This document shows, one piece after another, positions 5,886 through 50,710 of a stretch of 64,000 bases of DNA (position 1 is its first letter; the number at the start of each line of letters is the position of its first letter). The DNA is taken from NCBI GenBank assembly GCA_951406725.2, contig OX597828.1:1116001-1180000 (forward strand), read 5' to 3'. The translations under genes were made by a program, and so were the position numbers. This DNA comes from Octopus vulgaris (lineage: Eukaryota). Under the pieces are notes generated by a model. The model had not been told where the DNA came from. It worked only from the letters and a program-made list of their open reading frames with translations, and did not search any database.

Positions 5886-5887
5886 AA

Positions 5888-9199: not shown

Positions 9200-9200
<1 letters not shown>
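5888..9200 (+). mobile_element. RTE-clade non-LTR retrotransposon, 5'-truncated, with (GAT)n tail
   Basis: APE motifs (AYAPQ, GDFNGHVG, QIDYIL), RT motifs (KAPGPSG, NYRGI, QFGF, FVDLEKAFD, GVHQGSVLSP), RTE C-terminus (LRWYGHV, RGRPRKTW), then 3'UTR and tail. Confidence 0.95.
5890..8633 (+). pseudogene. Disrupted APE-RT polyprotein of the RTE element
   Basis: ORFs 5890..7689, 7747..8355 and 8361..8633. TAG replaces the Tyr of YADD at 7687-7689; frameshift near 8350. Confidence 0.92.
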
Positions 9201-22725: not shown

Positions 22726-23795
22726 AATGGCTTTCTGTAAGGTAAATATAGGGTAACATTAGCCACTCGTTATTATCAGCAAATGCCACAGATGGTTTAG
22801 ATAGCTGTTTCTCATAACAAAGTTGATGCCATGTTGATGATGTCCACTTTCAGAGCAGTTGCTCCAGACAAATATAGCCCTCACCAACCTTAAGGAAACC
22901 TTTTCAAAGTTTCATTAAGTGAACCATATAATGTCTAAGTTCACTGGCTATTGGTGTCATTCATTAGTTAGGTTGCTTTGTCAAGTTGCCAATATATATC
23001 CATGTATTTTGTATAAGTGTGAATGGTATACACACAAACTTAGCTGCCAATGACCATTACTTTACTGCTGACATGAGTTCTAATTAAAAGCTTCCAATAT
23101 TCAAACTGGCTCCTTTTGCCAATTTCCATTACTACCAGACATGTTATAGATCCTTATTACAAGAGTGAAAACTGTGCATAGTCACTGTGAAAATGACTGG
23201 TACATTCACCTACCCGCCCAAAATTCACAACTTATTTTCTCCCAAAGTGCCCTCTCCCAGTTTTTGTCTTCCTAGACAATCTTCAATACTGGTTCTCGAT
23301 AAAAATAAATCGTACCTCCTTTCAAAAATTATGTTTATCATGATTACTCTCTTCTTTTTATTAAAAATAAATTCAAAAACAAAATATTGTTATTTTCACA
23401 TGATCATTTACATTCAGAAGGATCAATCAACTGACAGGTTGAATTGCTTGTGGTGTTGGCGGTCGGTGTTATGGGACGTGATGAGCTATGTGGTGTTGGT
23501 GGAGAGGATGACAGATGAGGTGGGCGGAAGTAGGGCTTGCAGGGGCCGGCGGAAGACTGAGCGGCATATGCATGGCAGGAAGCGGATGTGGTCAAGGAGG
23601 AAGCACATGTGGTCAGTGAGGAAGCGCGGCAGTTCCAGCATAGACAGCAAAGCGACAGGACGTGTCAAATTCGTGAGAGACCGCTGATTTCACCAAGGTA
23701 AGGCCTTTTGTATTTCTTTCTCCCGTTGCTTCTTTTTTCTGTTGTCCTCTTCATCCATCACACTACAAGCTACTTCGGCTCATAAAAAAAAAAAA

Positions 23796-24542
23796 ATGAT
23801 GAGTGCCCGTATTTCGAACGAGATGATCAAACCATTTTGCGGTGACACAGATGTAGTCGCTTGGTTGAAGGTGAAGTTGGTGGCAAAGCTCCAAGATATA
23901 AGCGACCTAGCGAGTTTTAAACCGCTGTACTTGGATGGTTTGGCATTGGCGCTGTATCTAGAGATGGAAGAGAAGGACCAACTTAGCGCAGAGAAAGTAG
24001 AAATCCGGTTGATGGAGGCCTTTGCGGAGGAAATGTTTGAGGCATACGCTCGCCTGGGGAAAACAAGATGGACTGGGGAACAGGTGGACGTATTTGCCAA
24101 TGAACTCAGGAGATTGGCTAAACTGGCGGATTATGAGGGAGAGTCGCTGGTTAAGTTGGTGTTTGTGACTGGCTTTCCTGTCAACATGTTGGTCGAGTTG
24201 CAGCAGCTTCAAAACATTCATTCGATGGCGATGGCAGACATCGTATCTCGGGCACGCGTTCTAGTTTCGTGCAGCAGAATGACGTCGGTAGCAGCTACTG
24301 CAACAACGAAAAGTGGCCGAGCTAGGAGCAGCAGAGAGGGGTCAAAGAAAGAACATGTGCGACCATTCAAAGGACAGTGTTTCCAGTGCCAGGGTCCGCA
24401 CATGGTGCGTGACTGCGAGTCACCCAAGCCTGAGGTCATTTGCTACCGGTGTCAAGAAACGGGGCATATAGCCAGCAAATGTCTGCGGGGAAACGGACTG
24501 GGAGAGACTACTGTGCCGGTAGTTGTCCTTTCGGATCAATAG
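23796..24542 (+). CDS. gag: Gag with two CCHC-type zinc knuckles
   Basis: Open ORF containing CFQCQGPHMVRDC and CYRCQETGHIASKC. Confidence 0.88.
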   Translation: MMSARISNEMIKPFCGDTDVVAWLKVKLVAKLQDISDLASFKPLYLDGLALALYLEMEEKDQLSAEKVEIRLMEAFAEEMFEAYARLGKTRWTGEQVDVFANELRRLAKLADYEGESLVKLVFVTGFPVNMLVELQQLQNIHSMAMADIVSRARVLVSCSRMTSVAATATTKSGRARSSREGSKKEHVRPFKGQCFQCQGPHMVRDCESPKPEVICYRCQETGHIASKCLRGNGLGETTVPVVVLSDQ

Positions 24543-25738
24543 AGGCGCGTTTATCGTTACTACCTGTGGTCGACATTCTGGTGGAGGAGAAGATGTCGCG
24601 AGCCCTCGTGGACACGGGCTGTACAACAACCCTGATGACTCCAAAAGTGGTAGAGACGTGGAGTGGAGAAAGCAGTGTAAGAGCAGTACACTGTGAAGGC
24701 ATTACAGATGCACAGGTTGTAGTGCAGGGAATAAGGCTGATGCTGCAAGCAATTGCAGTTGGCCACTTGGTGGACGAGATTGACGTGGTGATGGGGATGG
24801 ATGCAATCACCCATTTGGGAGGTGTCACTGTTAACGAGGCCAATGTAACCAGACGGAGTGTGCAGAGAGTGGTTAGCAGCTGTGACAGGTGCCAGTCCAT
24901 CGACCCTGCTCCAGGCGTACATGAGGCGGGAAGTAATCCAGTGGTCCACGGCTGGAAACGACTGGCGGTGGACATAACACACTACCGGCAGGGGACATAC
25001 CTCTCAATGGTTGACTGCGGACTGGGGCGGTTGGCCATATGGAGGGAGATGAAGACGGGGACCGCAGAGGAAATTGTGAAAGTATTGAATGAGATATTCC
25101 TGGAACGAGGCCCCGTAGATGAACTGATTCTGGATAATGGCACTGCATTTCGCTCGGAGGTGCTGAAAGAAATGCTTGATGGGTGGAAGGCCAACCGCTT
25201 CTTCAGGGTGGCATACCAGCCAAGTGAAAATGGGGTGGTGGAAAGGCATCATCGTACCATCAAGACCATGGCAGAGAGGGGCCACATTTCACCAATCGAG
25301 GCTGTATTTTGGTACAGGTCGCCCAGATCAGGACAGGCTGAGGAGTCGGTGCCACACAGGGCAATATTCAGGTACGAGTGGAGGCATCCGTGTACTGCAT
25401 CAATGCGACCTGGGGCAGAGGAAGAGCAAGCCTTCGTAAAAACCCCAAACACATGGTGTACATCACGATGGGGAAAGGGAACAATAACCTCTATAAATTC
25501 GAAGAACAACATTTCTGTCGATGGTATGCCATGCCACATTTTGGATATATGGAAGATTGTCCATACCTCAGAGGATGGAACCAGCAGCAGTGGGCAAGAA
25601 GATGAAGACAACATCAGTAGACAAGATGATGAAGCCAGCAGCAACATGCCAGGAACCAAGGCCAGTCCTAGGGTCGCACTGCGACCACAGAGGGAACGGC
25701 ACCTTCCTCCCTGGTTGGTTGATTATGAAACCACTTAA
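24488..25738 (+). CDS. pol: Pol remnant: aspartic protease fused in frame to integrase core, entered via a probable -1 frameshift
   Basis: Slippery G-GGA-AAC at 24488-24494; ALVDTGC protease motif; CDRC, AVDITH, ILDNG and NGVVER integrase motifs; no RT motifs. Confidence 0.82.
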   Translation, partial: GKRTGRDYCAGSCPFGSIEARLSLLPVVDILVEEKMSRALVDTGCTTTLMTPKVVETWSGESSVRAVHCEGITDAQVVVQGIRLMLQAIAVGHLVDEIDVVMGMDAITHLGGVTVNEANVTRRSVQRVVSSCDRCQSIDPAPGVHEAGSNPVVHGWKRLAVDITHYRQGTYLSMVDCGLGRLAIWREMKTGTAEEIVKVLNEIFLERGPVDELILDNGTAFRSEVLKEMLDGWKANRFFRVAYQPSENGVVERHHRTIKTMAERGHISPIEAVFWYRSPRSGQAEESVPHRAIFRYEWRHPCTASMRPGAEEEQAFVKTPNTWCTSRWGKGTITSINSKNNISVDGMPCHILDIWKIVHTSEDGTSSSGQEDEDNISRQDDEASSNMPGTKASPRVALRPQRERHLPPWLVDYETT

Positions 25739-26111
25739 GGTGTGAGTTCAGGAGCGAGGAGTGAGTAGGAAAGCCAGTTGAGTGATCTGTAGATCGGGGG
25801 GGGGGGGGGCGTGTGGTGTTGGCGGTTGGTGTTATGGGACGTGATGAGCTACGTGGTGTTGGTGGACAGGATGACTGAGGGGTGCATGCGTGGGAGGAAG
25901 CGGATGTGGTCAAGGACAACACACGTGTGGTCAGCGAGGAAGCACGGCAGTTCCAGCATAGACGGCAAAGCGACAGGGCGTGTCGAATTCGTGAGAGACC
26001 GCTGATTTCGCCAAGGTAAGGCCTTTTGTATTTCTTTCTCCCGTTGCTTCTTTTTGCTGTTGTCCTCTTCATCCATCACACTACATAGCTTATAGAATTA
26101 ATAGCCATCTT

Positions 26112-26326
26112 TAGGCAGCGAGCTGGCAGAATCATTAGCATGCAGGGCGAAATGCTTAGCAATATTTCGTCTACCATTACATTCTGAGTTCAAATTTTGC
26201 CAAGGTCAACTTAACTTTTCATCCTTTTAGGATCGATAAATTAAGTACCAGTTACACACTGAGGTTGATGTAATCAACTTATCCCCACTCCCAAATTTCA
26301 GACCTTGTGCCTATAGTAGAAAGGAG
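26112..26326 (+). mobile_element. tRNA-derived SINE
   Basis: A-box-like TGGCAGAATCA and B-box-like GAGTTCAAAT; flanking direct repeat ATAGCCATCTT / ATAGCCACCTT. Confidence 0.8.
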
Positions 26327-28846
26327 AATTATAGCCACCTTAAATGTACCTAGTCACATGCAAACATGAAAAGCATGTACCAATATTCACATATCAATGA
26401 TATAATTTACAATATACGGTATTCACAATATACAATATTCACAGTAATAGTTTGGCACCTCCTACTAATATCTTCATAGATACGTGAGAATATCTATCAA
26501 TAAGAACATGTTAGGCCATACATTTGCATATTGTCCACCTGACTGATGATGTGCCAATAAAGATAGTCTACATCAGGTGTGAAGAGCCTTTTTTCTGTAC
26601 TAGTGATAAATGCAAGTGCATAAGAGTCATTTAGCATTCGTTCTGTGTTGAGTTTATAACTGTGCAACTTATATTAAATTATTATTTTGGTATTAAGGTT
26701 AAAGTCTTTTTGTTTGTTCATATGGATTGTTTGAAACTTTGTCAAGGAGTTGTTTCAAATTTGAAAATGGGTAAAATTTTGCATGCGAACAAAGATACTT
26801 TTATTCCTGCTCTACACGGTCATTGGCTTACAAGAAATAACATTCAAATCCCTCTGAAAAAATCTTTCAAAAAGGGTGCAGTCATATTAGATAATGTAGT
26901 CCTATTCCTATGACAGTATGATCACTGCTGGACTGCTTTGCCTCATAGGTCTGCTCAAATGCTGACCAACGGCTAAACAACCAACAAAGTTCTCAGAAGG
27001 TCCTCTGAAATAACTTTTTCTCTTTCTTTTTTTTTTTGTCACTCTCTACACCTACAGAATGCACGTTACCTAATCCTTTATGCTCCCAAAAACACACATC
27101 TACAACTTGTTTCTCTCATCCACTGACCTTCAACAGTTCAAACTATAACTTCGCCAGCTCGCCTCCACCTCGCTTCTAGGAGAGCCTTTAAAGATTGTAA
27201 GTTCTGTCTATATCAGAGCAAATACTTACGAGTGTACGTAAATCGGCATGTTTAAAGACGAGGTTGTATGTCTAACACTAGATCTCTATATGCCAGCGTA
27301 TGAGAGATTTCGAACTATTTACGTCAAGAGGTATGTGGGACATTATCTAATATGACCTTCTCGTCCTTTTTCAAGACTGTAGTTATGCAATTTGAGGAGA
27401 ATATGGAAGTTATTTCTAGCATGTCAATGACAATGTGCAGCAGAATTAAGAGACTTTTTGCTCAAATACAAAATTTAGGCATCACAAAACCAGCGTAAGT
27501 GTTTTAAAGACTTTTACTGCAAACTATTTCAAACCAGAATGCAGCAGACTAACTCATCGCAACTAGTTATTTTGGTGCACACCCACATACACATTTAACA
27601 AATATAACGTTTCAAATTTAATAAGAGTGAAGTGGTAAGACACATTTTCCATGAGAGGCAACTTAAGTGAAATACATGTTCATTTACCCATGTGAATGGT
27701 TTTGGGAGTTAAAACGAGAGGTGATACAGAATATACAATCTACGAAATATAAAATATGGACACAAAAGAAAATACGCAAAAGAATTATTATAGGAGAGTA
27801 GGAAGAGATAGAAAGAAAGCAAGGCGGAGTAAGAGAAACAAACACCTGACCTTCCCTCCTGATGCATGTGTCGGTATTTACCTTAATAGCTTTTGCTATA
27901 ATAACGAGTTGTTTTGTGTCTATATATGTTGAATATCTTGTATTGCAGTGTGTACGTCATTTTCCCTAATACAGGGTCAAGATAGATTAATTATAAAAAG
28001 ATATTTTTGTTATATACACTTGTTTGTGTGTCTTGCAACTATTTGCAGAATTCAAGACAAAATTCTTATTTAAAGAATAAGTTGAAAAGAAAGTACTTTA
28101 TTAGGCGATCTTACGAAAGATCGCCCTTTATTATGATCTAAGTAATAAAGTCGCTTAAAAATCACACAACATATATTTAATTCGACCATTTGTTGGAGTA
28201 GGTGTGAACTGAAGTAGTTTCGGAAGTATAGTGAGGGAGACAGCAAGATAATATAACTTGTTAGGCTACAGACACAGGTTCAACAACACAAACAAATCGG
28301 GACCGAAGTTGATAAGAGAGAAATCTTACCTGAATTTCAAAAGCAACAAACCTTGTCAAGATCCCATGTAACTTGTAATATTTATGAGATACTGGAAATC
28401 AAAACAGAAACAAAACTGTTGGTGTCGACTTACATCTCTTCCTGATGTTATTGTTTTGTTCTTTGCATTTATCAGCTTGTAATTGTTGTGGGTGACACTG
28501 TTGGCATTTACATACATAAATAAAGGCTTTGAAACTGTGTGCATGCAATGTATAACCCTCTCCAAGCAGACTGAGATGCAATTGCCGCGTCTTCCTGACT
28601 TTCATTTACTTTTTTCCCCTCTGGTTGTCTTCTCCTTGTTCACTTCAATACACTTCACCGTCTCGCTCTTCTTCCCTTCTTTCCTCTTTCCTTTAGTCAC
28701 TTCTTTTTCAATTATTTTTACTTTCATTACCTCTGTATTTATTCCTTCCTTCTCTTTTCTATATTCTGCATTTTCTCTATCAGTGTCTTCATTCCTTCCT
28801 ACTTCTCATTCTCTTCACACTACATCTGCCACCTCCTCCTTCGTGT

Positions 28847-28894
<48 letters not shown>

Positions 28895-28900
<6 letters not shown>

Positions 28901-29243
28901 AGAAGGTTATTTGCCAACATAATGTGGCTGTCCTGGAAGGGACGATTGTTACTGTTGTTTAGCCCCAGGAAACATCATTTCCAGCTGACTATACGACACA
29001 ATATCGGTGTCCTTATAATTTCGAACAAGGAGTTCAGCACCTCCATCCAGCACAAAGCAGCATCTGTGGACCGGTTTCTGGATTATTAGTCTTTATCAAC
29101 ACTGAGTAGCTGTTCGAAAGTATAAGGACACAGAGATTGTGTCGAATAGTCAGCTGGAAACGATGTTTCCCGGGGCTAAACAATCGTAACAATCGTCCCT
29201 TCCAGGACAGCCACATTATGTTGGCAAATAGCCTTCTACTTTA
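28895..29243. repeat. Fold-back inverted repeat (~133-bp arms, 83-nt spacer) between (TA)n tracts
   Basis: 28895-29027 is the reverse complement of 29111-29243 with a few mismatches. Confidence 0.93.
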
Positions 29244-29319
29244 AAGAACATCTCTCTTTGAGAGATTTAGAAATAATAATGTTTCTATGTTATAAATAAA
29301 TAAATATAAATACACATAC

Positions 29320-29368
<49 letters not shown>

Positions 29369-29437
29369 GGAGTAAACACATAAATGTGAAACAAGGTGGA
29401 AAAAAGAGTACTCTAATACCAGTGGTAGAGTAATATG

Positions 29438-29590
29438 CTTTATTTAAAGCAGCAGAAAATTCAACAAAATCTGTTACTCTGAGTTTCTCGTTGCCGTTCA
29501 TCAGACAGTTTTTGCAAAAACTGTCTGATGAACGGCAACGAGAAACTCAGAGTAACAGATTTTGTTGAATTTTCTGCTGCTTTAAATAAA

Positions 29591-29591
<1 letters not shown>
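29438..29591. repeat. Perfect 154-bp spacerless palindrome, probably a Penelope-like pLTR inversion
   Basis: Centre at 29514/29515; each arm holds a hammerhead core; left arm extends to ~29365; flanked by (TA)n. Confidence 0.9.
29521..29558 (+). ncRNA. Minimal type I hammerhead ribozyme motif (mirror copy on the minus strand at 29471-29508)
   Basis: CUGU-CUGAUGA-aCG GCAA CGa-GAAAC UCAGA GUA-ACAG. Stem I is CUGU/ACAG, stem II has a GCAA loop, and the cleavage triplet is GUA. Confidence 0.75.
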
Positions 29592-29662
<71 letters not shown>

Positions 29663-29894
29663 TTCACGGAAAACAAAAAATGTAAGCATCTGTAAATTCT
29701 GTGCTGGTGTCATGAGAAATGTTTCTATTTTGTGACACAAAATATAGAAAGTAATGTAACACCAATGACTATATAATCCAACCAAAATATCTCAGTTACA
29801 CAAACGTAAACAGAATTAATATTTAACCTTAAAATACATCATACATATTCAAAGAACCTCCTTGGTTTTGTGGTAAGGAACGTTTTTTCTGGTA

Positions 29895-30890
29895 TTCTTT
29901 TATTCTTTTACTTGTTTCAGTTATTTGACGGTGGCCATGCTGGAACACCACACTTTAGTCGAAGAAATCGCCCCCTGGACTTATGCCCTGTTGTCCTGGT
30001 GCTTATTTCTATCAGTCTCTTCTGCTGAACAGCTAAATTACAGGGATCTTTTCTTTTTGAACGGCACTTTTCAACACGATTTCTAGTTAACTAAACACTT
30101 TTAAACTTCGTATGCTGGTAGAATGTGTTTATAAAACATCATTTTTTCTTGGCTTTATTGAGAAAATTCTATATGCTGTAACATATTTCGTCTTTAATTT
30201 CGAGCATTTCGGCAATTTTAACCAATCGCTGGAGTCCATTTAAGTAAATAACATTCTGTGCATAATGAATATGTCCCTCCTTTAAGAAACAAATTGGGTT
30301 TATTTACATTTGTGAAGAAAAAAGATACCCTTCCCCCACCCCTAACTCTAACCCTAAATCTAAAATAGATTGAAATGCAATATATCGATACTAGGGCCAT
30401 AATTATGGGTGACAATTTCATACAGAAAAATGGGATTTTTTTCTAGCGGTGTCAAATGAAAATGTCACCCATAATTATGGCCCTAGTATCGATCTATTGC
30501 ATTTCAATCTATTTTAGATTTAGGGTTAGGGGGAAGGGTATCATTTTTTTCTTCACAAATGTAAATAAACCCAATCTGTTTCTTAAAGGAGGGACATATT
30601 CATTATGCACAGAATGTTTTTTACCTCAATGGACTCCAGCGATTGGTTAAAATTGCCGAAATGCTCGAAATTAAAGACGAAATATGTTATAACCTATAGA
30701 ATTTTCTCAATAAAGCCAAGAAAAAATGATGTTTTATAAACACATTCTACCAGTATACGAAGTTTAAAAGTGTTTAGTTAACTAGAAATTGTGTTGAAAA
30801 GTGCCGTTCAAAAGGAAAAGATTTCAATTACAGGGACGCAAATGCACCAAAATCGGTTGTCAAGCAATGGGGTGGGACAAACACAAACAT
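29895..30890 (-). mobile_element. SINE split by a fold-back transposon
   Basis: TACTTGTTTCAGT...GGCCATGCTGGAACACC...CTAAATTACAGGG, resuming AATTACAGGGACGCAAATGCACC after 30825. Confidence 0.75.
30043..30825. mobile_element. Non-autonomous fold-back DNA transposon (MITE) with ~375-bp TIRs
   Basis: 30043-30422 mirrors 30457-30825; AATTACA(GGG) is duplicated at the junctions (7-10 bp TSD, exact boundary ambiguous). Confidence 0.9.
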
Positions 30891-30903
30891 GCACGCACAC
30901 ATA

Positions 30904-30937
<34 letters not shown>

Positions 30938-32329
30938 CAACTTTTCTCCCCCACCCATTTTGTAGGGAGTATTACCCATTATTCTGGGCTCTTTTCACAG
31001 CTATATCCCATTCGAAATTTGCATTAGTTTTTGTACGAATTTTACAAGCAGACTACCGTTGTTCAGATAAACAGTAACCTCATTGCCGTAAGCGATGGAG
31101 TGTCATTTTTTAAAAAGAGTGAAAGAAAAGGAAATGTTTCGTATGGTAAGGCAAATATATCATGTGTTTAGTATAAGCAATGGAAGCTAAGACGAATTAA
31201 TAGCTATTCTGTCATGTCGTGACTTCGACCTGGACTCATACTCAGTTTGATAACAATAGCCTGCACATTGGTGCTTATCTGGGGGCTTGGCCTCCAAATC
31301 TGTGAGACTTGCAAATACCACTGTTAGGACAGTGACTCTAAAAACTAAAACGATTTTCCTGCCCCTATACATGATCCTTTTTTCATTTTCTTCCAACCAC
31401 TTGAAGGCTTATCTTGCTCCAGTCCACTCAGCTGCCAAAATGAATTGTACTTGTAATTAAAACTTTACTTTGGTGGTACCATATTGTTCCTGGGTCTATG
31501 AGTATGACATTTTCTCTTCTTGTCATTCGCACAACCTGTCAGGTAATTAGGACAACGGCTTTTTATAAGTAAAGGTGAGTCTCGAGGCTATAAAAAGTGA
31601 AATATGTGATACACAGGTAACCATTGGAAATATTTGTCTATTAACTCCCTAGATGTGATTGAAATGAAGGAAATATACCTCTTTACCATACCCATGGTGA
31701 ATTTTTCATCTTCCATTATGCAAAATTCGAAAATCTCACCAATTTGTCAGAAAAAAAACAACTTTTTTATGTTTTTCACAGTATATTGACTTTCATTCCA
31801 ATTTTTTTTGTAATTAATTTAATATTCATTAAGTTATACAAAATAGTTCTAATTACTGGGTATTTCTACTATACCATATGAAATTTGAGTCTGCTATCTT
31901 CAATAATAACGATATTATAAGCAATTTCCTACCCCATCCTCTATAAGGCCAAAATGGATGATTTCGATAAAAATCTTGGTAATGGAGGGTGTCTTAGCAT
32001 TTTTTGGAGCTTTTTGGACTTGTTTTATGTATTTCAATGCGAGGAAGCCAAACAAGAGAAAATGTCATCACATAAACCCAGGAACAATGTGTTACCAATA
32101 AACTAAAGTTGCAGTGGGGGGGGGGGGACCATCTCAATGAATAAGAACATTATTTATTTGGCCTACCGTCTATATGTGCAGTGTTGGTTTGTGTTGACTT
32201 CAACCTGATTTTATGTCATTGTTAAGGTATGTTTTTGTTATTATAAATATGTCAATCATGTCAAGTAGCATGAAATAAGTGGTAAACGAATGTGCAGAAA
32301 ATTGTTTGAAAATGTATGGAAAAAGCAAG

Positions 32330-34992
32330 AAGAGTCCTCCCATGTCATCCTCAGATTGAGGGCCTTTCACACTACAATGATGTTCCTTGCAATCCTGGGA
32401 AAGAGGTTCGGTGATGCAGGACTGTCAGATATGGTCATCAAAGTTAGTATCATTGCTTCTGGTTCAATTCTTGCAGTTCTTGAGGGTCAGCAATACAATC
32501 ACGCCATACGAACATGGAAGCTATGTAGCATCTGAGAATCAAAGCCTTTTATGAATGGGCACAGAAGAACCATACTCATTTACTCCAACCCACTTGGGCA
32601 GCAATGGATAATGTCAGCAGTGAGATCACTTCAGATAATTTCAATAACATGTTGGCACCAGAGTTCACACGTCTCTTGGAATTATTTGATGAGTTCTGCA
32701 AGTTGGACCAAGGTAAACTGGCAGCCTTTTGGGACTCTTACATTGACCTGGTCTACCTATTGCTTCTATTCACATGTGCTACTAGAGAGGGAAACTGGAT
32801 TTTGCATCTTGCTTCTGTGCGTGAGATGCTACCTTGGATGTTTGCATACAACAGAACAAACTATGCCCGTTACCTCTCTGTGTACTGGTGTGAGATGAAG
32901 ACCCTGCTTCAGACACATCCTGAAAGCAATACTCTTCCCCTGGAAGAGCATTTTACAGTTCAACGATATTCCAAGAGTGCATTTTGCCAAGTTGCTGTTG
33001 ACCAGACCATTGAGCAAACTTTGAATCGTGACTCCAAAACAAGTGGTGGTGTAGTAGGTATCAGCCTCAACCAAGGGGAGGGGCAGCGTTGGGTTCTGAT
33101 AGCACATGACGGGACAAGAATACTTCAAATCTGCAGGAAGACGGCTGGTATGTATGATGCCCAGAACCAACACCACAAAGAAACTAGTTCTCCTCTCCTA
33201 AAGAAAGATGAAGGTGATATTAAAAAAGTCATGGACACGATAGAAAGTTGGGTGAGCCCATTTGAGACAAAGAACACAACTGATTCTCTCATCAACATTG
33301 CATCAGGAGTAAAAGCCACTGATGATATAACAGAGGATATTTTGTCTGCAGAAGAGAAGGGAGCTAATGCCTTCTCATCTTTTGTACATGAGAGGCTGTG
33401 TAGCAGTCAGACAGACCTTTATTCCTCATTAGCAAAGACTGCACTCAAAACATTTAGGAACCCAGTGAAAACAAAGAAAACTAAAGGTACCATCACAGAT
33501 GTTGTAATCAAGGCTGATAGTGGACTCTTTGCAAAGATGGTGGTCATTGCTCAACACAGACAAATGAACATGAAAGAAGTTTTGCAGTATCCACTAGGTC
33601 CTCAGTCATGGTCCCTTGCAACTCCTGATGGTGCACCTGCAAAGACTACCAAGGCATCCCTTTTACATTCATTAGAAGAGCTAGCTAAACCAGCAGAAAA
33701 TATCCCTACAACAGCAGTATGGATCTTTGATGGAATGGCTTTGCTGCAATCCATAAAGACAGTCCCCAAGATATTCAGAGATCTTGCTACTTGTGTTCTT
33801 TATGTTCTTGAAGTGCTGAAGTCAACAAGCAATAACCCTGCCAGAATAGACCTAGTTATGGACCAGTATCCTGAGCTATCTATCAAGAACCCAGAGCAAG
33901 CAAAGCATGGAACATCAGGTGTCTTGAAAAGGAAGATCCTTGGCAGGCATCAGAAGTGCCCGACATAGTGGAAGAAGTTTCTTAGTGATGGTGGGAATAA
34001 GACCAAACTTGCAAAGTTTCTGGTGAAAGAGTTACAGCAGCCAGAATATGCTTCCAGGTTTAAAGGGTTTGGACCACTGTACATCACCCATGGGGATGAG
34101 TGCCACATGCTTGTTGAGAATTATGATTGTGTAAAATGCAGTAGATCAACTGTGCACATCAAAGGAAGAAGCTGACACCTGCATTCTGCTACATGCAGGC
34201 CATGCAGCATTAGAGGGGAATGCATGCATCATGATTAAGTCACCTGATACAGATGTTGCTGTGTTGACCTGTGCTTATAGCCATCAAATCAATGCAAGAC
34301 TACTATTCTGCACTGGCCCCACACAGAGACAAAGGTACCTTGATGCCACAGCTATTGGCCTGAAACTAAGAAAAGATGTGTGTGAAGCAGTGCCAGGAAT
34401 GCACGCATTCACAGGATCTGGCAGCACTAGTGGATTTGTTGGTAAGGGAAAGAGGCAGGCATTCAAAATGGTGGTGTCTGATGTAGAAATGTGCAATGCG
34501 ATGAGAATGATTGGCTCATCGTTTCATATAGATGATGAAAAGCTGCAAGCAAGTTTGTTTGTTTGTTCTCTCTCTGAGTACAGTCGCAATGATACCGACC
34601 TTGTCCACTACAAACTATTCTGCAACAAGAATGCCCAAATATGTCATCTTCAAGATGCACTCAAGTACTATGTGAAGCAGGCAAATTACCAAGCATGCAT
34701 CTGGCGATCAGCACTAGATGCATCTGAAACCACACCAAGTTCAGATGTCCATGGCTGGGACCTCAAAGATGACACATTGGCTATCCACTGGATGGACAAA
34801 CCACCAGCACCAAAAGCACTCCTGTTATTGATATCTTGTAAATGCAGTATTAGCCAGTGTAACGGTAGTCAGTGCTCATGCCTTGTGAATGGTTTGTCGT
34901 GCACTGATGCCAGTCAATGCAAGTCATGCACAAATACCACAAATATTGATCAAACAGAATCCAGTGATGAGGATGAGGATGAGGATTATTAA
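32330..34992 (+). pseudogene. Disrupted Academ-type transposase with XPG/FEN1-like nuclease and C-terminal Cys-rich (CXC/Cys8) finger
   Basis: LR.FHTTM.FLAILGKRF.DAGL, REGNWILHL, NYARY, DQTIEQTLNRD.K..GG, DGMALLQ, EEADT, SPDTDV, HAFTG...SGFVGKGK, CKC..C..CSC..NGLSCTD..C..C.N. Stop at 33966, frameshifts, N-terminus missing. Confidence 0.82.
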
Positions 34993-35386
34993 TGAATAAT
35001 GATAACTGTTTTTTCCCACATATTTGCTCATTCTATGAAGTGTATTATTGGCTGTGGTAAGACTTGCACTGGTGGTGAGTGAAATTGCTTGACTTTTGGG
35101 GGTTATGTTATGTTTTTCGATATGATTACTCCTTACTTAGGAAAGGAAATTACTTATAATATCATTATTATTGAAGATAGCAGATTCAAATTTCATACGG
35201 AATAGTAGAAACACACAGTAAATACAACTATTTTGTTTAACTTAATGAATATTAAATTCATTAAAAAAAAAAAGGAATGAAAGTCAATATACTGTGAAAA
35301 AAACAAAAAAATGGGCGATTTTTCAGACAAATTGGTGAGATTTTCCAATTTTGGGCAATGGAAGATGAAAAATTCACCATGGTATA

Positions 35387-36682
35387 CAGGGTGTCCACAA
35401 AGTTTCTTTACAATTTCAAAAATTTATTACAAAGGCAATTGATGGTTTATATTTGTCAGATTTGTCCTATGTACTCAGTGGTTATTAAAGTTTTTAACCA
35501 CATTGAATTTGTATTTTTCAGGTACTCTGTTGATGGAAAAGGTTCTGTTAAATGAAACAATGGCTACTCCTCAAGAAAAAGTGCAACATGTATCTTGGTT
35601 TATTGAAACAAAATCGGACATGCAGACCCAGTGAAAGTACAGGATCAAGTATAGAAGACATCTACCATGACATCCATCAATTTGTGCAAGCACAAGAAAT
35701 TTATGGAAACAGGAACAGTGTTGGATAAAAGGAGGAGTGGACAACCAAAATTATCTGAGGAAAACATCGATAGTATAAGACAAGCTTTTGCTAGTTCTCC
35801 TACAAAGTCCATATCTAATGCCGCCAGACAGTTACAGCTATCACATTCAATAGTGCACAAAGTCCTACACAAGAACTTGTGATTATATATGTACAAAGTG
35901 CAACTCTTACAGGCAATTGAACTAAATGATAAACCAAGGCAAAAGAGTTTGCAATTAACATGCTGGAACAAATTTCTGAGAATGCAGCATTCCTCACCTG
36001 AGTTTGTTTTAATGATTAGGCAACCTTTCATGTTTCAGGAAACTGAACCCACATATTGTGAGAATCTAGGAATCAGAACAAGCCCATGTAACTAGGGAAC
36101 CTCACCGAGATAGTCCAAAGGTGAATGATATGCACTTGAATCAGTGGTCCATTTTCTTCACAGGGAGATCAATTTCTGAAAATATTTACCTTGATCTTTT
36201 AACTGAATATATGGCACCACAACTGGATGACCGTCAACTAACCATCATTTTCCAGCAGGATGGTGCACCACCACATTGGGGACTGCATGTTCTTGGGTTC
36301 CTAAATCAGACATTTCCAGACCGTTGATTTGCAAGGGACAGCCTAATTCCCTGGATATCACTCCTGAACTTTTTCCTATGGGGTTATATTAAAGACATTG
36401 TGTATCAAACAAAGATATGGAACACAAACGACCTGAAGCAAAGGATCACTGATGCCATTGTGACCATTGATAAGACTGTACTACAATGAACATGGCAAGA
36501 AATTGGTTACTGTCTTGATGTACTTTGTGCAACTAATGGTACCCATATAGAGATGTATTGAATAAGGCAAAAAAAAAATTCAATATCTACACCTTATTTT
36601 GTAATAATTTCCACAGATTTATCTATTTATTTGCTTTTGTAAGAAATGTTTGAAATTGTAATGGGACTTTATGGACACCCTG
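35387..36682 (+). mobile_element. Tc1/mariner-superfamily transposon nested in the Academ right inverted repeat
   Basis: TIRs CAGGGTGTCCACAAAGT / ACTTTATGGACACCCTG with TA TSD; decayed transposase (KFMETGTVLDKRRSG, FQQDGAPPHW, FFLWGYIK). Confidence 0.92.
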
Positions 36683-38449
36683 TATTTCCTTCATTTCAGT
36701 GACATCTAGGGCGTTAACAGATAAATATTTTCCAATGGTTACCTGTGTATCACATATTTCCACTTTTTATAGTCTCGAGACTCACCTTTACTTATAAAAA
36801 GCTGTTGTTCTAATTACCTGACAGGTTGTGCAAATGACAAGTGAAAATGTCATACTCATAGATCCAGGAACAATGTGGTACCATCAAAGTAAAGTTGCAG
36901 GGGGAGGGGTGCAACCAATTCAATAAATAAGGCCCTTTTGGGATTTGGCCCACCGACTAGGGCCAGTCTTGTCATATTCTGTGTTAAGCTGAATCTCCCT
37001 GAGAATTACATTAATGGAATGTGTGTCTGTGGAGTATTCAGCCACTTGCAAGTTAATTTTATCCTTGTGTAGTAATGAAAAGGGAAAGTGACATCCAATA
37101 TTTGCTGTAGTTATTTGTCTTTGCTTTAACAATGTGTCTGTCTATGTATCAACTTTTCTTTTGATATATGTATCTACTTGTATCTTTCCTTTCGATCTAT
37201 GTAGCTACTTTTCTTTTGATGTATGCATCAGTCTACTCTGAAAATACTGATAAACATTTTACTTCTCCTTTCAACTGCAGAAAAGTAACAGTAACATCCA
37301 CAGCTACTTGCTGAGAGAGAGATAGACAGAGGAGAGAGAGGCAGACAGAATAACTGTCAGACAGACAGATAGATAGGCAACATTTCTTTTTGCAATTTCC
37401 ATATTTTCAACACCTTTATCATATATTGTTGAAAATGTAAAGTTTTCCAGCATTTTCTGTATGAGAATGGTTCCTTCTCTCACTATTATTCTCTATCCAC
37501 TTCCTTCCTCCACTCAATCTATCTCACTAAATCTCTCTCTTTTCCACCCTCCCTCTTCTATGTCTCCTTGCTTCTAACTGTTCTCCTGTGTTTAACACAT
37601 TATATTTCTTTTACCTCTCAGCTCTATCAATCTCCCTTCACTCTCTCTTTCTCTTTCTCTCACCCCCTCTTACTTCCTCCTCTTTGCTGCTTTGCCTCTC
37701 ACTTCAACTATAATTCCTCTGCTTCTGTCCCTCCCCTCTCTCCTGCTTTGCCACTAACTTCAAGTATACCTCCTCTGCTTAATACCTTTTATTTCTCTTT
37801 TTCTTTGTACCTCTCCCTTCAACCTTTTTACCTCTTCCTTTGAAGTAAGTGTGACACACCACAGGTATGTACAAAAACAAAAAAAAATAAGTGTATTAAT
37901 ATTATTGATAATTGTCAATGATATAGATAGATAGAGAGAGAGAGAGAAAAGGAAAGAAAATGGAGAGTTGACAGTTAATTATTTATTAATTGATAATTCT
38001 TACTTCCTACTGCTGTTTCCATTTGTGCTCATTAAATAAATTACAAATTTGTGCTTTAAATTTGCATTTATAAGATATGAGCAAAATATCATCAGGGAAG
38101 AAGATATACATTAAAAGATTACATGTTAACCTCTTAGTTCATACTAGTAGACTAAATATATGGAGTTATTTTGTGCATTTAATGTGAATTTAAAGCATAA
38201 ATTATTTAATGAGTACAAATGGAAATAGCTGTACGAAGTAAGATTTATCAATTCATTAATAAATAATCATTAACTTTCAACTCTGCATTTTCTTTTCTTC
38301 TATTTATTGAAAATAGATTATATGCCTAATATATACCTATTGATTTAGGGAAATTTTATTTCCCAAAAATATTAGGTATAGAATCAGTGTTGTATGTAAT
38401 CATACCTTTAAGAGGTTAATAAATCCTCTAATTAACTTATATATAAGTT

Positions 38450-39350
38450 ATGCTGTGTCCCAGTTACTGCTTGGCCAAGTTGGAGCACCTTTTAATTTCC
38501 TGTGGAAAGGACACATTCCAATGGTCTGTCTACTGCCAGCACCCTGTGAGTGGCGGATTAACCAGGTCTTGTTTTCTGATGTTTTCAGGTTGCACAAAGA
38601 TTTTTGAACTGTGAATGTGTGTGGGTTTCATTTGTGAGGCATGTCTTTAGGCAGCTCATCTTCTTGATGGAGCTGCAGTTCTGGATGAACAAAAGATTGA
38701 GACTGGTTGTTTGGCATCTTGATTGTCATCAGGCACTCACTGTCCTCTACCAGTCAGGCAATGGGATCGGTGGATATTCCACTTTAGCAATATATAGAAG
38801 ATTAGTGGCAATGAAGTGTGACAACATTCTCGGGGAGACCCTGGGCATTGACAAAAATGAACTGGCTAGTCTAATCCAGAGTACTTTCCAGTCAGGGACT
38901 GTCATGGATAATTTCCAAATGTCCTTAGTATGGCAGTGCTACCAAGGGGTGGGGGTATAATGGATTCAAAATAAACTCTACAGGCACAGATATACTGTCA
39001 GACTCCTTTAGTATTTGAGCATTGCTGATTTATGGGGTTATTTCCAACAGCTGCTGTCAAATGTGGGATGGAGCCGTCTATCAGCCAAGTCCATAGTGAT
39101 GATTGCCCTCCTTTAATCAGGTAAGACAGTTTCCCTTTGCATGGTGGCAGTTGCAAAAGAGGTTGTTTGGTGGACGAGGTTGAATGGCATGAGGACAGCG
39201 ATGTTCCTGTTTTGTAGAGCCCTCATCAACTTTTTCAAGTGAAACTTGATAAAAAGTAAGTGAAGGTGGAGAGTTAATTTATTGTAAGGTGGGGGAAAGT
39301 TGTGAAAATGATAAAGGTGAATGGAACAGCTCTAATTGTAATCTTATGAG
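38450..39350 (+). mobile_element. Highly decayed L1/Tx1-like LINE C-terminal remnant
   Basis: FLWKG...P..GGL-like and FQMSLVWQCYQG...KLYRH fragments; many stops. Confidence 0.45.
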
Positions 39351-39637
39351 TTGGAGAAAAGGAACTGGAGAGGACACTTACCTTTGGCGTTCGAGGAGAT
39401 CTTGGACAGTGAAGTTCTTAGATTATCTCAAGAGGTCTTCCTACATCAGGAGAGCCACATCACTGTCATCCTTCTTTTTTCTTTTATTTTTGTATATTAT
39501 GCGTACTTCTCTTCTTTGTTTTTATTGTATACAGTGTATACTTTCAATTTTTTTATCATTTCATCCACACATTATGTCTGTCTTTGTATTGCCTTTCTCA
39601 TCCTTCCCACTGGTGGCAAATAAAAGAAATCATTATT

Positions 39638-42565
39638 TGTGGTGGAAGGGTAATTGACCAGGCACAGGAAGACCAGATGGGACAGCACGTCAGGAAGCAA
39701 CTGGGTAAGTCTGACTCTAATTTTATGCCGTCTGAGAATGAGGCAAGTTGTGCTGCAAGAAGTAGTGTGAGGGGATCTGAGCTGAAGAGATTGGTTGAGT
39801 CAACACATAACAACTGAATGATCTGGCCACAGTACCCGATTGCACTTCGGTATAAGAGCGACTCTATTTTCATGCCTTCAAACTACAAGCTATTTCGGCA
39901 TGTTGTTACCGGCTGTGATGATATGTCTAAGAAGTATATAGAAAGATTTTTTTTTAATTTTTGTTGCTCTTGTTTTCCCTTTGTTTTTTTTTTTTTGTGA
40001 TGGCCACAAAAATCAAAATCGGTAGTGATGTGTTGAAACCATTCACTGGGGAAGGCAATGTGATGTCCTAAATAAAGAAGGTAAGACTTGTGGCAAGGCT
40101 GCAGGAAATAGATGTGGCTAGCCTAATGCTGTTGTACTTAGAAGGCAGTGTTCTGAATCTGTACTTGGAGATGGATGAAGCAAACCAGGAGAAAGCAGGA
40201 AAAATTGAAGAGTGGCTGAAGGACATGTACATGGTTTTAAAGCCTACAGCAAGCTCAGTAGAGTAAGATGGACCGGCAAGCAGATAGACAACTACATGAG
40301 TGAGATTAGGAGGTTGGTGGGCCTAGCAGTGTTTACTGGAGCAGTGATGAAGCTGACTTTTGTGACCGGCTTCCTCAACCATATCTCTCTACATCTGCAG
40401 GAGATGCCGGACATTGAAACGATGTCGGTAGGAGAGATGTAGTGACAACAGTGACTGCATATACAAACAGGACAAAGAGGTAGACTTGCTTGCTGATGTG
40501 ACATCATCTAGTCCCTTCTGATCCTCCTGTGCTGTCTCTCCTTCTCCCTTCTGGTCAATTACTCTGAAGGAGGTACAGTACTGGGGCTCGGGCTCAAAAG
40601 AGATAAAGCTCATAGGCTTGTGTTTCACAGGAGAAACAAGATCCTGGACCTAAATCAGGATATGAATAGGTGAGGGCTATTCTCAATGTGTAGGAAGCTA
40701 CTTGGTCACGACCCTGTCACAGGATGGCTCCAAAAATGTAGCTATTTCAAAAGTGAGCAGAAGGAGTGAACTGGGGTGATAAAGTGGGAGAGAAGACGAT
40801 GATGATGATGCAAGAGGTCTTGGAGAGAGTGTGAGTGGAAGATCCAGTGAAGGGCAGCTGGTACATGCCTGATACAAAGGAAGTGACTATGTGGTGCATA
40901 GCATTGGGAGTCATGCTGGAAATAGGAGGTGTCAAGATGGAAGACGTTGTGAGGTTTAGGAAGAAGGGTGACTACAACTACATCAATGTAACTGAACTGG
41001 ATGCTTTGTTAAAGAGTGTAAACCTAGCCCTGAGATGGGAATTATGAACTGTTGAGGTCCAGACTGATTCTGCCATAGAATGAGGGTGGGTGGAATCAGC
41101 AATCACCAACTGGAATTGGATTCGTACAAAAGGGGCAGTGGAAATGATGATTAAGCATTGCCTGGGAATCCTGAGGGAGCTAACTGCCAAGTTCAACCTG
41201 GATTTGCATGTGGTTTCATGCCCTTGGAAAAGAATAAGGCAGACATTCTAACCAGAGTAAAAAAGCATTGGTTGGAAACAGCAGAGGATGTTCCAAGTGG
41301 GGTAGCTGTGGTTTGTCAGCTAGAGGGCACAGAACTGAGGAGGATACACAAAATGCACTACATGGGGGTCAACAGGAGGTTGTTTTTTGGCTAGGATGGT
41401 TGACCCCCAATGTCACCAGGGAGAGTGTTCAGAAGATAGTGGGGAACTGCAACAGGTGCCAGTCGATTGATCCAGCCCCAAGTGCACACGAACCAGGAAA
41501 GAATCAGATAGAGGAAGACTGGAAGAAGCTAGCCATTGATGTGACACATTATCAAGGAAAGGTATACCTACCTTTCAAAGGTCAACTGTAGGCCAGGGCA
41601 AATGGCTATATGGAGAGAAATCATGGTAGAGACTGCTGCCAAAGTTGCAAAAGTGCTGAAGGCAGCGTTCTTGGAAAGGGGGCTTGTAGTCAACCTATTG
41701 ATGGACAACAGCACAGTTTTTCATTCAGAGCAGCTGAGAGAGATGCTCAAAAGGTGGAGCACAAGACACTTCTTCAGAGCTGCACACAGACCAGATGGAA
41801 ATGGGATAGTGGAATGGCACCATCATATGATTAAAGCCATGACTGAGAAAGAACGAATCTCCCCTATGGAGGCAGTCTTCTGGTACAACATGTCACTCAG
41901 AGTGGGGCAAGCTGAAGAGTTGTTCTTGCAAAGGGCCATATTCCAGTACAAATGGAGACACCCGAGCATAGTGCCACAGCAGCTAAAGGTAGAAGGGGTT
42001 ACATCTATGCAGGTTGGAGGTGAAGTGTGGGTGAAGCCCCCAAACACTTGGTGCACAGAGCAATGGGAAAAAGGAAAGGTAATCGTGATCAATACATTGA
42101 ATAATGTATCAATGGATGGAATGCCGCATCACATCCTGGATATTTGAAGGGTGACGAAGGGGAGGGAGAAGCCACCCCCATAACCCTACAGACATCTCAA
42201 AGGGAATGTTATACCTCCCACCCACCGAGTGGATGGACAATTATGAAACAAAACAAGGGAGCAGTGATCTTTAGATCAGTGGGGCATGTGGTGGAAAGGT
42301 AACTGACCAGAAGGGAGAAGGAGACACAACACAGGAAGACTGGAAGGGACCAGATGACATCACATCGGTGAGTGACAGGGCAAGTTTGCCTCTTCTTCTA
42401 TGCTGTCTGCAGACAAGACAAGTTGTGCTGCAAAAAGTAGTGTGAAAGGATCCAAGCTGAAGAGATCAGTCGAGTCAACACATTATAACAGGTGAATGAT
42501 CTGGCCACAGTACCTGATCACAACTTGAGGTAAGAGCGGCTCTATTTCCATGCCTTTAAACTACA
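39638..42565 (+). mobile_element. Gypsy-type LTR retrotransposon B (same lineage as A), decayed and rearranged
   Basis: LTRs 39638-39887 and 42287-42565 (TGTGG...CTACA) with perfect TSD TTATT; gag remnant 40000-40440; RNase H remnant (INVTELDALLKSVNLAL); integrase 41340-42147. Confidence 0.9.
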
Positions 42566-42829
42566 TTATTATTGTTATGAGTTTTTCTTCTTTCAATTTT
42601 GTTTTCATTTCTTGCTAAGTGTCTTCCTGACTCCTAAAGCAAAGAAACTCACCATATGCCTTGACAGGCCTTTAAAAACCAAACATACTAGATTGTTCAT
42701 TTTCAAAATGAAATAAAGTCATGTGAAGAAAAAAATTTAAAACACATAGGTGGTAATTGTTCTCTCATCAACAATGTTCTTTTCAATATTCGCATGTTGA
42801 GAAGTGCATTGTCGATGTGAGAACAAACC

Positions 42830-43600
42830 AGCTAAAACAATCTTTTGCACTTCATGCAGGGATGATAAGCAAGGGATGATACTGAAATTATTTTCAGTTC
42901 CTTTTTTGATCATTCCAAGTGCTCCTATAATCGCTGGTATTGTAACCGCCTTGAGATGTCACATTTTTGTCAATTTCTTTTGCCAAGACATTCTGATCAC
43001 AAGGTATACTCATGTCAATCAATAAACAAACTTTATTGTTTTAGATTTTCACAACAAAATATTGTTGTGAAAATCTAAAACAATAAAGTTTGTTTATTGA
43101 TTGACATGAGTATACCTTGCTTATTAGCTGTGATGATTCAGTCTGTAGGTACTGGAAAGTCCTAAAGAATAGTTATATTTTCTCCCTCAGTTACAGCGTC
43201 AGGATGATGATTATACCATTTGTTGGCAGTTTTGATTTTATAATCTCAACATATTAATCAGTGTAGATATTGGCCAACTCTGTCATTTATACTCCACTGA
43301 TACTCAAACTTTACATCCAGAGATTAAGTGGTCTGCTATTTCAATTACATAATTGCAGAATTGGCATTTTGGACGTGCTCCATTTTTCATTATATTGGCT
43401 TGGTAGTTATAGGTCAATAAGCTTTGATCTTAAGCAGCTAAGATAAAGCCTTCACTCTCTGCCTTTAGTCCTGAGCTCCATAGATGGGTGTGCTTCTGGT
43501 CTACATCAGCCTGTTTGCTATAGACCAAATATTTGCCACTTCTCAGCCAATTGCTCATATGTTTTTTCTTTGCAACATTTGCCACACTTTTATTCAACCT
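42830..43600 (-). mobile_element. R4/Dong-clade LINE 3' fragment (decayed)
   Basis: The minus strand gives SSGLKAESEGFILAA, HLISGC, CLLIDMSIP and IIGALGMIKK, homologous to 51107-51920. Confidence 0.78.
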
Positions 43601-48850: not shown

Positions 48851-48997
48851 TATGTACATTATTTACATTTGATGGATATTTGTCCTCATCTTGTTTCAGC
48901 AGATATACCGTCCAGCCTTTATCAGGTGTTTTGGGGAAATTTCAAACCTGAGTTCTCATTCCTAAGGTATTTTTCGATGTTATTGTTATTATTATTA

Positions 48998-50590
48998 GGA
49001 GACCTCCAGGCAATATCTTCAAGAAAGGATGCCACTGGGAGTTCCTCTATGCTGACAACCTTGCTCTAATTGCTGAGTCAGTATCACAACTAGAGGAGAA
49101 GTTTCAAGTGTGGAAACTAGGATTAGAATCAACCTAGCAAAAACCAAAGTCCTAATAAGTAGGAAGGCAGGCAAACCACAAATCCCTTCAGGTAGATGGC
49201 CCTGCTCGATCTGTAGAAAAGGCATAGGTAGAAACTCTATAAGATGTATCCAGTGTAAGCTATGGACACACAAGAGGTGCAGTAATATCAAGGGAAGGCT
49301 AACTGGGAAGAAAGTTTTTCTATGTGGCAGATGAACAGGAGCGATAAACACTGAAAATGCACAGAGACCAACTTCCGCCACATTCCAGGGAGAAAAACTA
49401 GAAGTAGTTGATAGCTTCCATTACCTAGGTGACCAAGTCAGTAGCAGAGGAGGGTGTGCTGAAAATGTAGCTGCTAAAATAAGAATAGCTTGAGCAAAGT
49501 TCAGAGAGCTCTTACCCCTGTTGGTGACAAAGGGCCTCCCGCTCAGAGTAAAAGGTAGACTGTATGATGCATGTGTATGAACAGCCATGCTACACGGCAG
49601 TGAAACATGGGCCGTGACTGCTGAGGACATGCGTAAGCTCGCAAGGAATGAAACCAGTATGCTCCAATGGATGTGTAATGTCTGTGTGCATACTCGACAG
49701 AGTGTAAGTACCTTGAGAGAAAAGTTGGACCTAAGAAGCATTAGATGTGGTGTGCAAGAGAGACGACTGCGCTGGTATGGTCATGTGGCGAAAATGAATG
49801 AGGATAGCTGTGTGAAAAAGTGCCACACCCTAGCTGTGATGAGGTGGTGAAGCACAACCTTCGAACATTAGGCCTCACCAAGGAAATGACTAGCAACCGA
49901 GAGTTTTGGAAATATGCTGTGCATGAGAAGACCTGGCAAGCCAAATGAGGCCATAACCTGTGACCTATGCCAAGAGCATAACCAGCCCGCTTATGCCTAC
50001 CTTTTTCTTCTTTGGTCACTAAACTCTGCTTGCGAAGACTAGTTGAGGCAAGTGAAATCAAAATCAATTTGATGACTGGCATCCGTGCTAGCAGGGTGCA
50101 AAGAGCACCATACAAGTGTGATCGTTGACAGAGCAGCTAACCGGCTTCCATGCCAGTGGCACGTAAAAGGACACCATTCGAGTATGATCATTACCAGCGT
50201 CGCCTTACTGGCACTTGTGCCTGTGCCAGTAGGGTGCCAAGAGCACCATCCGAGCGTGATCGTTGCCAGAGCAGCCAACTGGCTTCTGTACCTGTGGCAC
50301 GTAAAAGGGCACCACTCGAGCATGATCGTTACCAACGTTGCTTCACTGTGCCGGTGGCATGTGTAAAAAGATTCAAGCGAGGTCATTGCCAGTACCGCCT
50401 GACTGGCTCCCGTGCCAGTGGTACATAAAAAAGCACCCATTACACTCTCAGAGTGGTTGGCGTTAGGAAGGGCATCCAGCTGTAGAAACTCTGCCAGATC
50501 AAGGTTGGAGCCTGGTTCGCCAGACCTCAGTCAAAATCGTCCAACCCATGCTAGCATGGAAAGCGGACGTTAAACGATGATGATGATGAT
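48998..50590 (+). mobile_element. RTE copy, 5'-truncated, with expanded 3'UTR module array
   Basis: ORFs 49110..49334 and 49587..49850 match the RTE at 7750-8630; (GAT)n tail. Confidence 0.93.
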
Positions 50591-50710
50591 TATTATTATT
50601 CAAGTCACTGCCTGGAATCGAACTCGGAATCTTGGGGTTAGTAGCTTATGCTCTTAACCACTATGCCATATGCCTGCGGGAATGAGAACCCAGGTTCAAA
50701 ATTTCCCCAA

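Follow-up and report, generated by a model that had tools for sequence, protein, structure and literature searches.

A conserved site complementary to the 5' end of tRNA-Phe adjoins the long terminal repeat in a poorly classified octopus retrotransposon lineage: a putative variant of cut-tRNA priming

A 64,000-nt window of the Octopus vulgaris genome (assembly GCA_951406725.2, contig OX597828.1, positions 1,116,001 to 1,180,000 of the forward strand; coordinates below are those of the window) holds two decayed retrotransposons with long terminal repeats (LTRs), elements A and B, in which the 5' LTR is directly followed by 12 nt complementary to nucleotides 1-12 of the host tRNA-Phe. Our findings indicate that this site is real, deeply conserved and apparently undescribed, and that these LTR elements, whose lineage is poorly classified, would use a variant of cut-tRNA priming. 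In this regard, the comparisons presented here make it probable that minus-strand DNA synthesis is primed by a 5'-terminal fragment of tRNA-Phe, 12 nt in length.

The putative primer-binding site and its match to host tRNA-Phe

Elements A (23449-26085) and B (39638-42565) are each bounded by TG...CA LTRs, and their sites read AGCTACTTCGGC (23768-23779) and AGCTATTTCGGC (39888-39899), respectively. In both, the 12-mer starts on the base right after the LTR-terminal CA, with no spacer, exactly where the first-pass annotation of this DNA had placed it, and the pattern AGCTA.TTCGGC has just these two matches in the window when both strands are searched. That annotation had also described the LTR interiors of A and B as dissimilar, and indeed they yield no blastn match better than E 0.39. 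Neither element has a TGG after its LTR, again as first noted, in contrast to canonical Gypsy elements of the same genome, where TGG lies 0-2 nt past the LTR in 6 of 6 cases; likewise, no TGG-starting site complementary to the tRNA 3' CCA end was found in the family elements examined.

A 15-nt tRNA-start pattern has 94 matches in the genome, and the 12 loci fetched from among these were all called as tRNA-Phe(GAA) by ARAGORN, with GCCGAAATAGCTCAG as the start. The tRNA start that the first-pass annotation had taken from the human sequence is thus confirmed for the host at 12/12 loci, and it is complementary to the B site at 12 of 12 positions and to the A site at 11 of 12. The C at position 6 of the A site is present in 2 of 47 site-bearing copies and is likely a later mutation. 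Among the tRNA genes at fetched loci, which sample part of the host set (Ala, Arg, Cys, Glu, Lys, Phe, Ser and Thr), the best non-Phe tRNA reaches 9/12 against the B site. The predicted duplex of the B site with tRNA nucleotides 1-12 has an energy of -20.7 kcal/mol, and that with the tRNA 3' end -12.5 kcal/mol. The best tRNA match of the site begins at tRNA base 1, the anticodon-arm complementarity typical of half-tRNA primers was not found, and the LTR end shows no in-register complementarity to tRNA nucleotides 13-17. Additional pairing with tRNA nucleotides 14-17 beyond a bulge was considered as well and rejected, since it is not conserved (position -4 is T in 21/47 copies and C in 20/47). 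As a separate observation, a tandem array of about 45 tRNA-Phe start motifs with a 200-bp period occupies G000:C18:30147732-30157146, and more such clusters lie on C6 and C18.

The two elements are organized as follows.

23444..23448, + strand: left target-site copy of element A, TTGCT; the right copy, TAGCT at 26086-26090, has one mismatch
23449..23767, + strand: 5' LTR of element A, TG...CA, with a splice-donor-like AG/GTAAG (GT at 23698-23699)
23768..23779, + strand: putative primer-binding site of element A, 11/12 complementary to tRNA-Phe nucleotides 1-12
23796..24542, + strand: gag of element A, with zinc knuckles CX2CX3HX4C and CX2CX4HX4C
24434..25738, + strand: pol remnant of element A, protease fused to integrase; the reverse transcriptase (RT) and RNase H part is deleted
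25783..25811, + strand: inverted repeat TGATCT-NN-AGATC of element A, then polypurine tract and 2-nt spacer
25812..26085, + strand: 3' LTR of element A
39633..39637, + strand: left target-site copy of element B, TTATT; the right copy at 42566-42570 is identical
39638..39887, + strand: 5' LTR of element B, TG...CA
39888..39899, + strand: putative primer-binding site of element B, 12/12 complementary to tRNA-Phe nucleotides 1-12
40018..40439, + strand: gag remnant of element B, found by tblastn, disrupted by a frameshift and stops
40566..42168, + strand: pol remnant of element B, spread over three frames; it retains the end of RT, RNase H and integrase but has lost protease and most of RT
42265..42286, + strand: inverted repeat TGATCT-TT-AGATCA of element B, polypurine tract and 2-nt spacer
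42287..42565, + strand: 3' LTR of element B

The LTR boundaries were read off the sequence, and the identity alignments, which started 1-2 nt away from these, gave 256/273 identical aligned bases between the two LTRs of element A and 207/242 between those of element B. As both elements are internally deleted, neither is autonomous.

The donor-like motif in the 5' LTR of A is shared with other families of this genome, whose LTRs carry AG/GTAAG or AG/GTAGG 37-70 nt before the LTR end in 10 of the 14 listed and the motif with a one-base variant in two more; AATAAA is mostly missing from these LTRs, and the distant relatives described below do not retain the donor. At one related copy (L094), contigs from 3 of 4 sequencing runs, whose kind we guessed to be RNA, leave the element exactly at the donor (813/814) and enter unrelated sequence, which suggests spliced LTR-host chimeric transcripts. 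By extension from this copy, we infer that the donor of element A is used in splicing too.

Conservation of the site among copies and distant relatives

The whole genome (2.8 Gb) was searched with reversed motifs as controls, yielding 118 matches to TACAAGCTAYTTCGGC against 0 for the control, and 287 matches to CA plus the 12-mer (CAAGCTATTTCGGC) against 14. To avoid circularity, copies were then chosen by their Gag protein alone, taking 50 of 150 listed loci (the best 30 plus 20 from further down the list). The site is exact in 33 of these copies, has one mismatch in 13 and two mismatches in 1, and is lacking in 3; all 47 site-bearing copies have CA before it. Conservation begins at the LTR end and ends after base 12, base 13 being free (A27, T13, G4, C3). 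Therefore, no pairing with the pre-tRNA leader is indicated, as expected if the match ends at the mature tRNA 5' end. Variant sites have 17 genome matches against 8 for the control, and only 2 of them precede a gag, each one base off the usual site. The site is missing after 3' LTRs, except in tandem copies. In full-length copies, which measure about 4.2 kb, gag and pol overlap, and an exact 5-bp target duplication flanks 15 of 24 elements with automatically placed boundaries, duplications of 4 or 6 bp flanking none; 4 further elements gave no parse.

Conservation of the motif across copies, on which the first-pass annotation depended, extends well beyond this genome. An alignment of Gag retrieved 45 metagenome loci with 26-37% Gag identity, again selected by Gag only and including near-copies (about 30 are distinct by eye). 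The site, as AGCTAT-nnn-GGC or a close variant, is present in 41 of the 45 and follows CA in 38 of these 41, while the remaining 4 loci are truncated or show just a partial Gag match. In 8 loci the LTR is seen twice, and the second copy puts the boundary at the same place. The sites read AGCTATCTAGGC in 14 loci, AGCTATTTCGGC in 10, AGCTATCGCGGC in 7, AGCTATCACGGC in 4 and AGCTATCCGGGC in 1; of the other five, two differ by a single mismatch and three are longer or shorter by one base. The four relatives tested have RT, RNase H and integrase in common with the family.

The fixed bases of the site correspond to tRNA nucleotides 1-3 and 7-12, and the variable ones to nucleotides 4-6. Of the new variants, the three seen most often (CGC, CAC and CTA) have complements that occur as the starts of natural tRNA-Phe(GAA) genes in other organisms, some of these genes having an animal-type body. 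On a Gag tree of 33 rows, which was restricted to loci with a clean open frame, the middle switches at least 10 times, and identical variants turn up in clades that are separate from each other. These recurrent changes fit a site that would be reset to the host tRNA, parts of the tree being unsure because of long branches. A Gag profile at E 1e-30 reaches 371 clusters at 50% identity, some via zinc knuckles only; named relatives come from cephalopods, gastropods and crustaceans, the best named Gag homolog being from Octopus sinensis (77%), and no relative was found in the viral contigs searched.

Two further observations were made. Five of the distant loci (L118, L123, L139, L133 and L135) consist of tandem units that share one LTR, with polypurine tract, LTR and primer site in series, or were assembled so. 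In addition, short contigs in prokaryote genome bins (L254, L258, L278, L280 and L244-L248) hold tRNA-Phe genes with an animal-type body, which likely reflect eukaryotic contamination.

Probable priming from the tRNA 5' end and its alternatives

We propose that the Gag nucleocapsid would anneal the 5' strand of the acceptor stem, together with U8-U12, to the element RNA, and that the tRNA would then be cut in the D-stem between U12 and C13, giving a 3'-OH from which RT would extend the primer into the LTR. The position of the cut follows from the need for a 3'-OH at the LTR edge and the pairing of nucleotides 1-12; it would instead be G10/C11 if the first two bases of the site, AG, were a 2-nt spacer, so that the primer may have 10 bases. 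Such a spacer would parallel the 2 nt that separate the polypurine tract from the 3' LTR. Plus-strand strong-stop DNA would finally copy the primer through to its 5' end, resetting the site to the host tRNA, which would explain both why the match stops at base 1 and why the middle differs between lineages. The cut could be made by the element's own RNase H acting in trans on an RNA duplex, in a manner otherwise like Tf1 self-priming, with about even chances between this enzyme and a host nuclease. Its own RNase H is favoured because the geometry resembles that of Tf1, where the transcript 5' end pairs beside the LTR and RNase H cleaves the duplex; the D-E-D-D residues of RNase H are invariant in 35/35 Pol proteins. 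The fullest version of this proposal is tentative and rather less probable than not: an unclassified deep animal LTR lineage outside Gypsy, BEL, Copia and Troyka, whose own RNase H would clip nucleotides 1-12 of tRNA-Phe after annealing and whose site would be re-fitted to a new host by copying.

Excerpts of the literature distinguish three primer types for LTR elements, namely a whole tRNA, a half tRNA produced by cutting the anticodon arm and a self-primer (PMC6317226). Cut-tRNA primers are described there for copia and Ty5 (PMC5371799, PMC10886601, PMC6317226), and half-tRNA use is reported, in the available parts of two of these sources, only in Copia lineages (PMC6317226, PMC10886601). 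The half-tRNA systems, comprising Drosophila copia, yeast Ty5, plant Osser/Bryco/Gymco-II/Bianca and fungal Copia/Helenus, share with the present elements an internal tRNA 3' end made by a cut and the lack of TGG after the LTR. However, as far as these excerpts go, they cut in the anticodon arm, whereas here nucleotides 1-12 would be paired, the primer would be a 12-base piece of tRNA-Phe and the domain order is protease-RT-RNase H-integrase. In Tf1, Sushi and Tj1, which are Ty3/gypsy chromoviruses, the extreme RNA 5' end likewise pairs beside the LTR and is cut to a short primer (PMC4600332, in part), and a title cited in that source states that the Tf1 RNase H cleaves an RNA duplex (Levin, 1996). 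In contrast, the present elements would use a host tRNA 5' end in trans, they lack an LTR complement, and their proteins are not Tf1/Ty3-like. The self-primer of Tf1 is 11 nt long.

Several points weigh against priming by a tRNA-Phe 5' fragment. The case is built on sequence comparison, the primer, the fragment, the cut and the strong-stop DNA being deduced and not observed; no run recorded as RNA was found to hold the element, and contigs cannot show transcript starts. A 12-base primer would have to be freed from a folded tRNA, whose predicted fold has an energy of -23.6 kcal/mol, and an intact RNase H is uninformative on RNA-duplex cutting because the enzyme is needed anyway. Regarding the variable middle, the variants were compared with tRNA-Phe of other organisms and not of the relatives' own hosts. 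Finding the three variants among natural tRNAs adds little, because the search pattern admitted only a Phe-type D-arm and matched 9 of the 16 middles that are possible, mostly in archaea. Furthermore, one distant site (L117) fits a tRNA-Lys-type start, and those of L143, L144 and L145 have one base more or fewer.

The conserved site could bind the tRNA-Phe 5' end for packaging, RNA folding, RT recruitment or host small-RNA control, with priming achieved by other means. Non-priming tRNA arms are described as binding element RNA in Ty1 and Ty3 (PMC5371799, in part), and priming is a deduction here. Nevertheless, the site abuts the LTR end without a spacer in 47/47 copies and 38/41 distant loci, the one place where a primer must end; no TGG-type site or other primer candidate was found in the elements searched, and a target of host silencing would not be kept by the element across such distances. 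We therefore regard these roles as unlikely. It is very unlikely that a dedicated short host RNA, or a 5' tRNA fragment ready-made by a host pathway, primes without any cut guided by the element. The end used by Ty5 is reportedly generated by the host's RNase P (PMC5371799, in part), and a ready-made fragment would have the same primer sequence as the one we propose, differing in the cutter, so that its probability is partly counted there. However, no gene family of RNA polymerase III type ending in the 12-mer plus a T-run emerged (6 matches in unrelated contexts, one of them a mutated LTR end), and Rfam found nothing in three elements.

Tf1-type self-priming would have the element's own transcript start, contiguous or spliced within the LTR, pair with the site, the tRNA match being incidental. 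The LTRs do hold a splice donor apparently in use, in several related families a weak pair of donor and acceptor would give a junction matching at 9/12, and two near-copies (L136 and L138) have an 11/12 complement 327 nt upstream. Yet the best contiguous Watson-Crick match within the 450 nt upstream has a mean of 7.85/12 against 7.77 for shuffled sequence (65 elements), and the best spliced junction averages 8.75 against 8.44 in 16 own elements and 8.25 against 8.18 in 20 distant ones, never exceeding 10. Both forms are thus at chance level, and a complement of at least 10 bases was not found in the 5' LTR: the one near-copy pair of 65 that reaches 11/12 likely has it beyond the LTR, which is 170-175 nt long in that group, and it is missing from 7/7 relatives with the same site. 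The candidate that the first-pass annotation had pointed out near 23520 does not survive either, being a 9/12 match at chance level that is not kept in other copies. Moreover, the LTR interiors are unalignable, yet the site is fixed, which leaves self-priming a highly improbable explanation. Lastly, the 12-mer could be left over from a single tRNA capture, could serve integrase as an attachment sequence or could have arisen by chance, and six of its 12 bases (the UAGCU region) are indeed common to many tRNAs. This view is largely refuted by the genome counts (287 against 14, with the site missing after 3' LTRs outside tandem copies) and by the conservation among Gag-picked copies, where the 12-mer is kept between Gag proteins 26-37% alike while its flanks diverge, and we give it next to no weight.

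If priming by the tRNA-Phe 5' end holds, a 12-base 5'-terminal tRNA piece would be a fourth type of LTR primer, linking tRNA priming to Tf1-type self-priming and assigning a definite function to very short 5' tRNA fragments. Such elements would also, we infer, lie beyond the reach of silencing by 3' tRNA fragments. Tools that seek TGG or tRNA 3' ends would miss the site, and the family, which is large, may need its own place in classification. No description of a 5'-terminal tRNA-Phe site appeared in the literature searched, whose scope did not extend to Repbase and subscription journals, matches to the motif string being tRNA or unrelated papers. Likewise, the accessible portions of PMC6238403, PMC8556966, PMC3587641, PMC8220671, PMC13191261, PMC12859917 and PMC2678813 contain nothing on it. 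The RT motifs of the family were not found in the parts seen of the supplements of PMC11673190, PMC6238403 and PMC8556966, in which alignment gaps can hide motifs. Other supplements or Repbase entries may already hold the lineage or the site.

Placement of the lineage and other features of the window

The label Gypsy, given to both elements in the first-pass annotation, is doubtful. It agrees with the domain order (protease-RT-RNase H-integrase) and with the lean of the RT profile (22 bits for Gypsy against 7) and integrase profile (65 bits against 6), the comparison being with BEL or LINE (long interspersed nuclear element), and the family further shares with Ty3/Gypsy (Metaviridae) the TG...CA LTRs, gag with overlapping pol and the 5-bp target duplication. 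Unlike Ty3/Gypsy, however, the elements are about 4.2 kb long, DUF7047 is present in 35/35 Pol proteins, and the RT_RNaseH / RT_RNaseH_2 signature is found in 0/35 against 4/4 Gypsy controls. The 60 best solved-structure matches do not include Ty3 Pol, whereas a true Gypsy of the same genome has Ty3 as its top match, at 1.7e-105. The family's RNase H profile does not detect Gypsy RNase H. A predicted Pol model, with a mean pLDDT (predicted local distance difference test) of 73.6, resembles the Pol of retroviruses, caulimoviruses and metaviruses alike, with identities of 10-18%, and an atlas search returned unnamed clusters, RVT_1 clusters and retroviral and hepadnaviral Pol, with no firm family. 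The lineage may therefore be a very divergent Gypsy branch or a separate one.

Other known groups were considered and rejected. BEL/Pao, including Sailor, does not fit, as Peptidase_A17 is not among the 11 families matched by 35 members and the RT profile gives 6.8 bits on a BEL locus; neither does Ty1/Copia, since integrase does not precede RT and RVT_2 was not matched. Troyka/Kuafuorterviruses are likewise an animal LTR lineage long classed as Gypsy yet distinct, characterized in the available parts of PMC12440569 and PMC11673190 by CG...CG ends, 3-bp duplications, xADD in RT, CX2CX8-10HX4C and a length of 5-6 kb, whereas the present family ends in TG...CA, duplicates 5 bp and has YIDD and ordinary knuckles.

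An inverted repeat, TGATCT-N2-4-AGATCA, abuts the polypurine tract across the lineage (A, B, L126, L133, L135, L139, L140, L141, L148 and L150) where it probably acts as a structural signal in plus-strand priming. We also considered whether a second tRNA-binding site, like that of Ty3, precedes the polypurine tract, given that GATCT..AGATC is in some copies partly complementary to the tRNA-Phe anticodon arm, and rejected this. We read the sequence as a hairpin or palindrome because its loop is unconstrained and the stem of L141 is preserved by changes on both sides.

Elsewhere in the window, two long frames at 32529-34992 (479 and 285 amino acids), with a cysteine-rich CXC-like domain at the end (TCR, E 0.0016), probably belong to a DNA transposon. 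Long inverted repeats resembling miniature inverted-repeat transposable elements lie at 30046-30822, 42747-42834 and 43000-43119; they comprise 278-nt arms that are 96% complementary and two short palindromes. Several RTE-like LINE copies with (ATG)n tails, at 5887-9200, 10177-11940, 48900-50600 and other positions, were also observed. Finally, a tandem repeat of 371/373 nt spans 234-2021.

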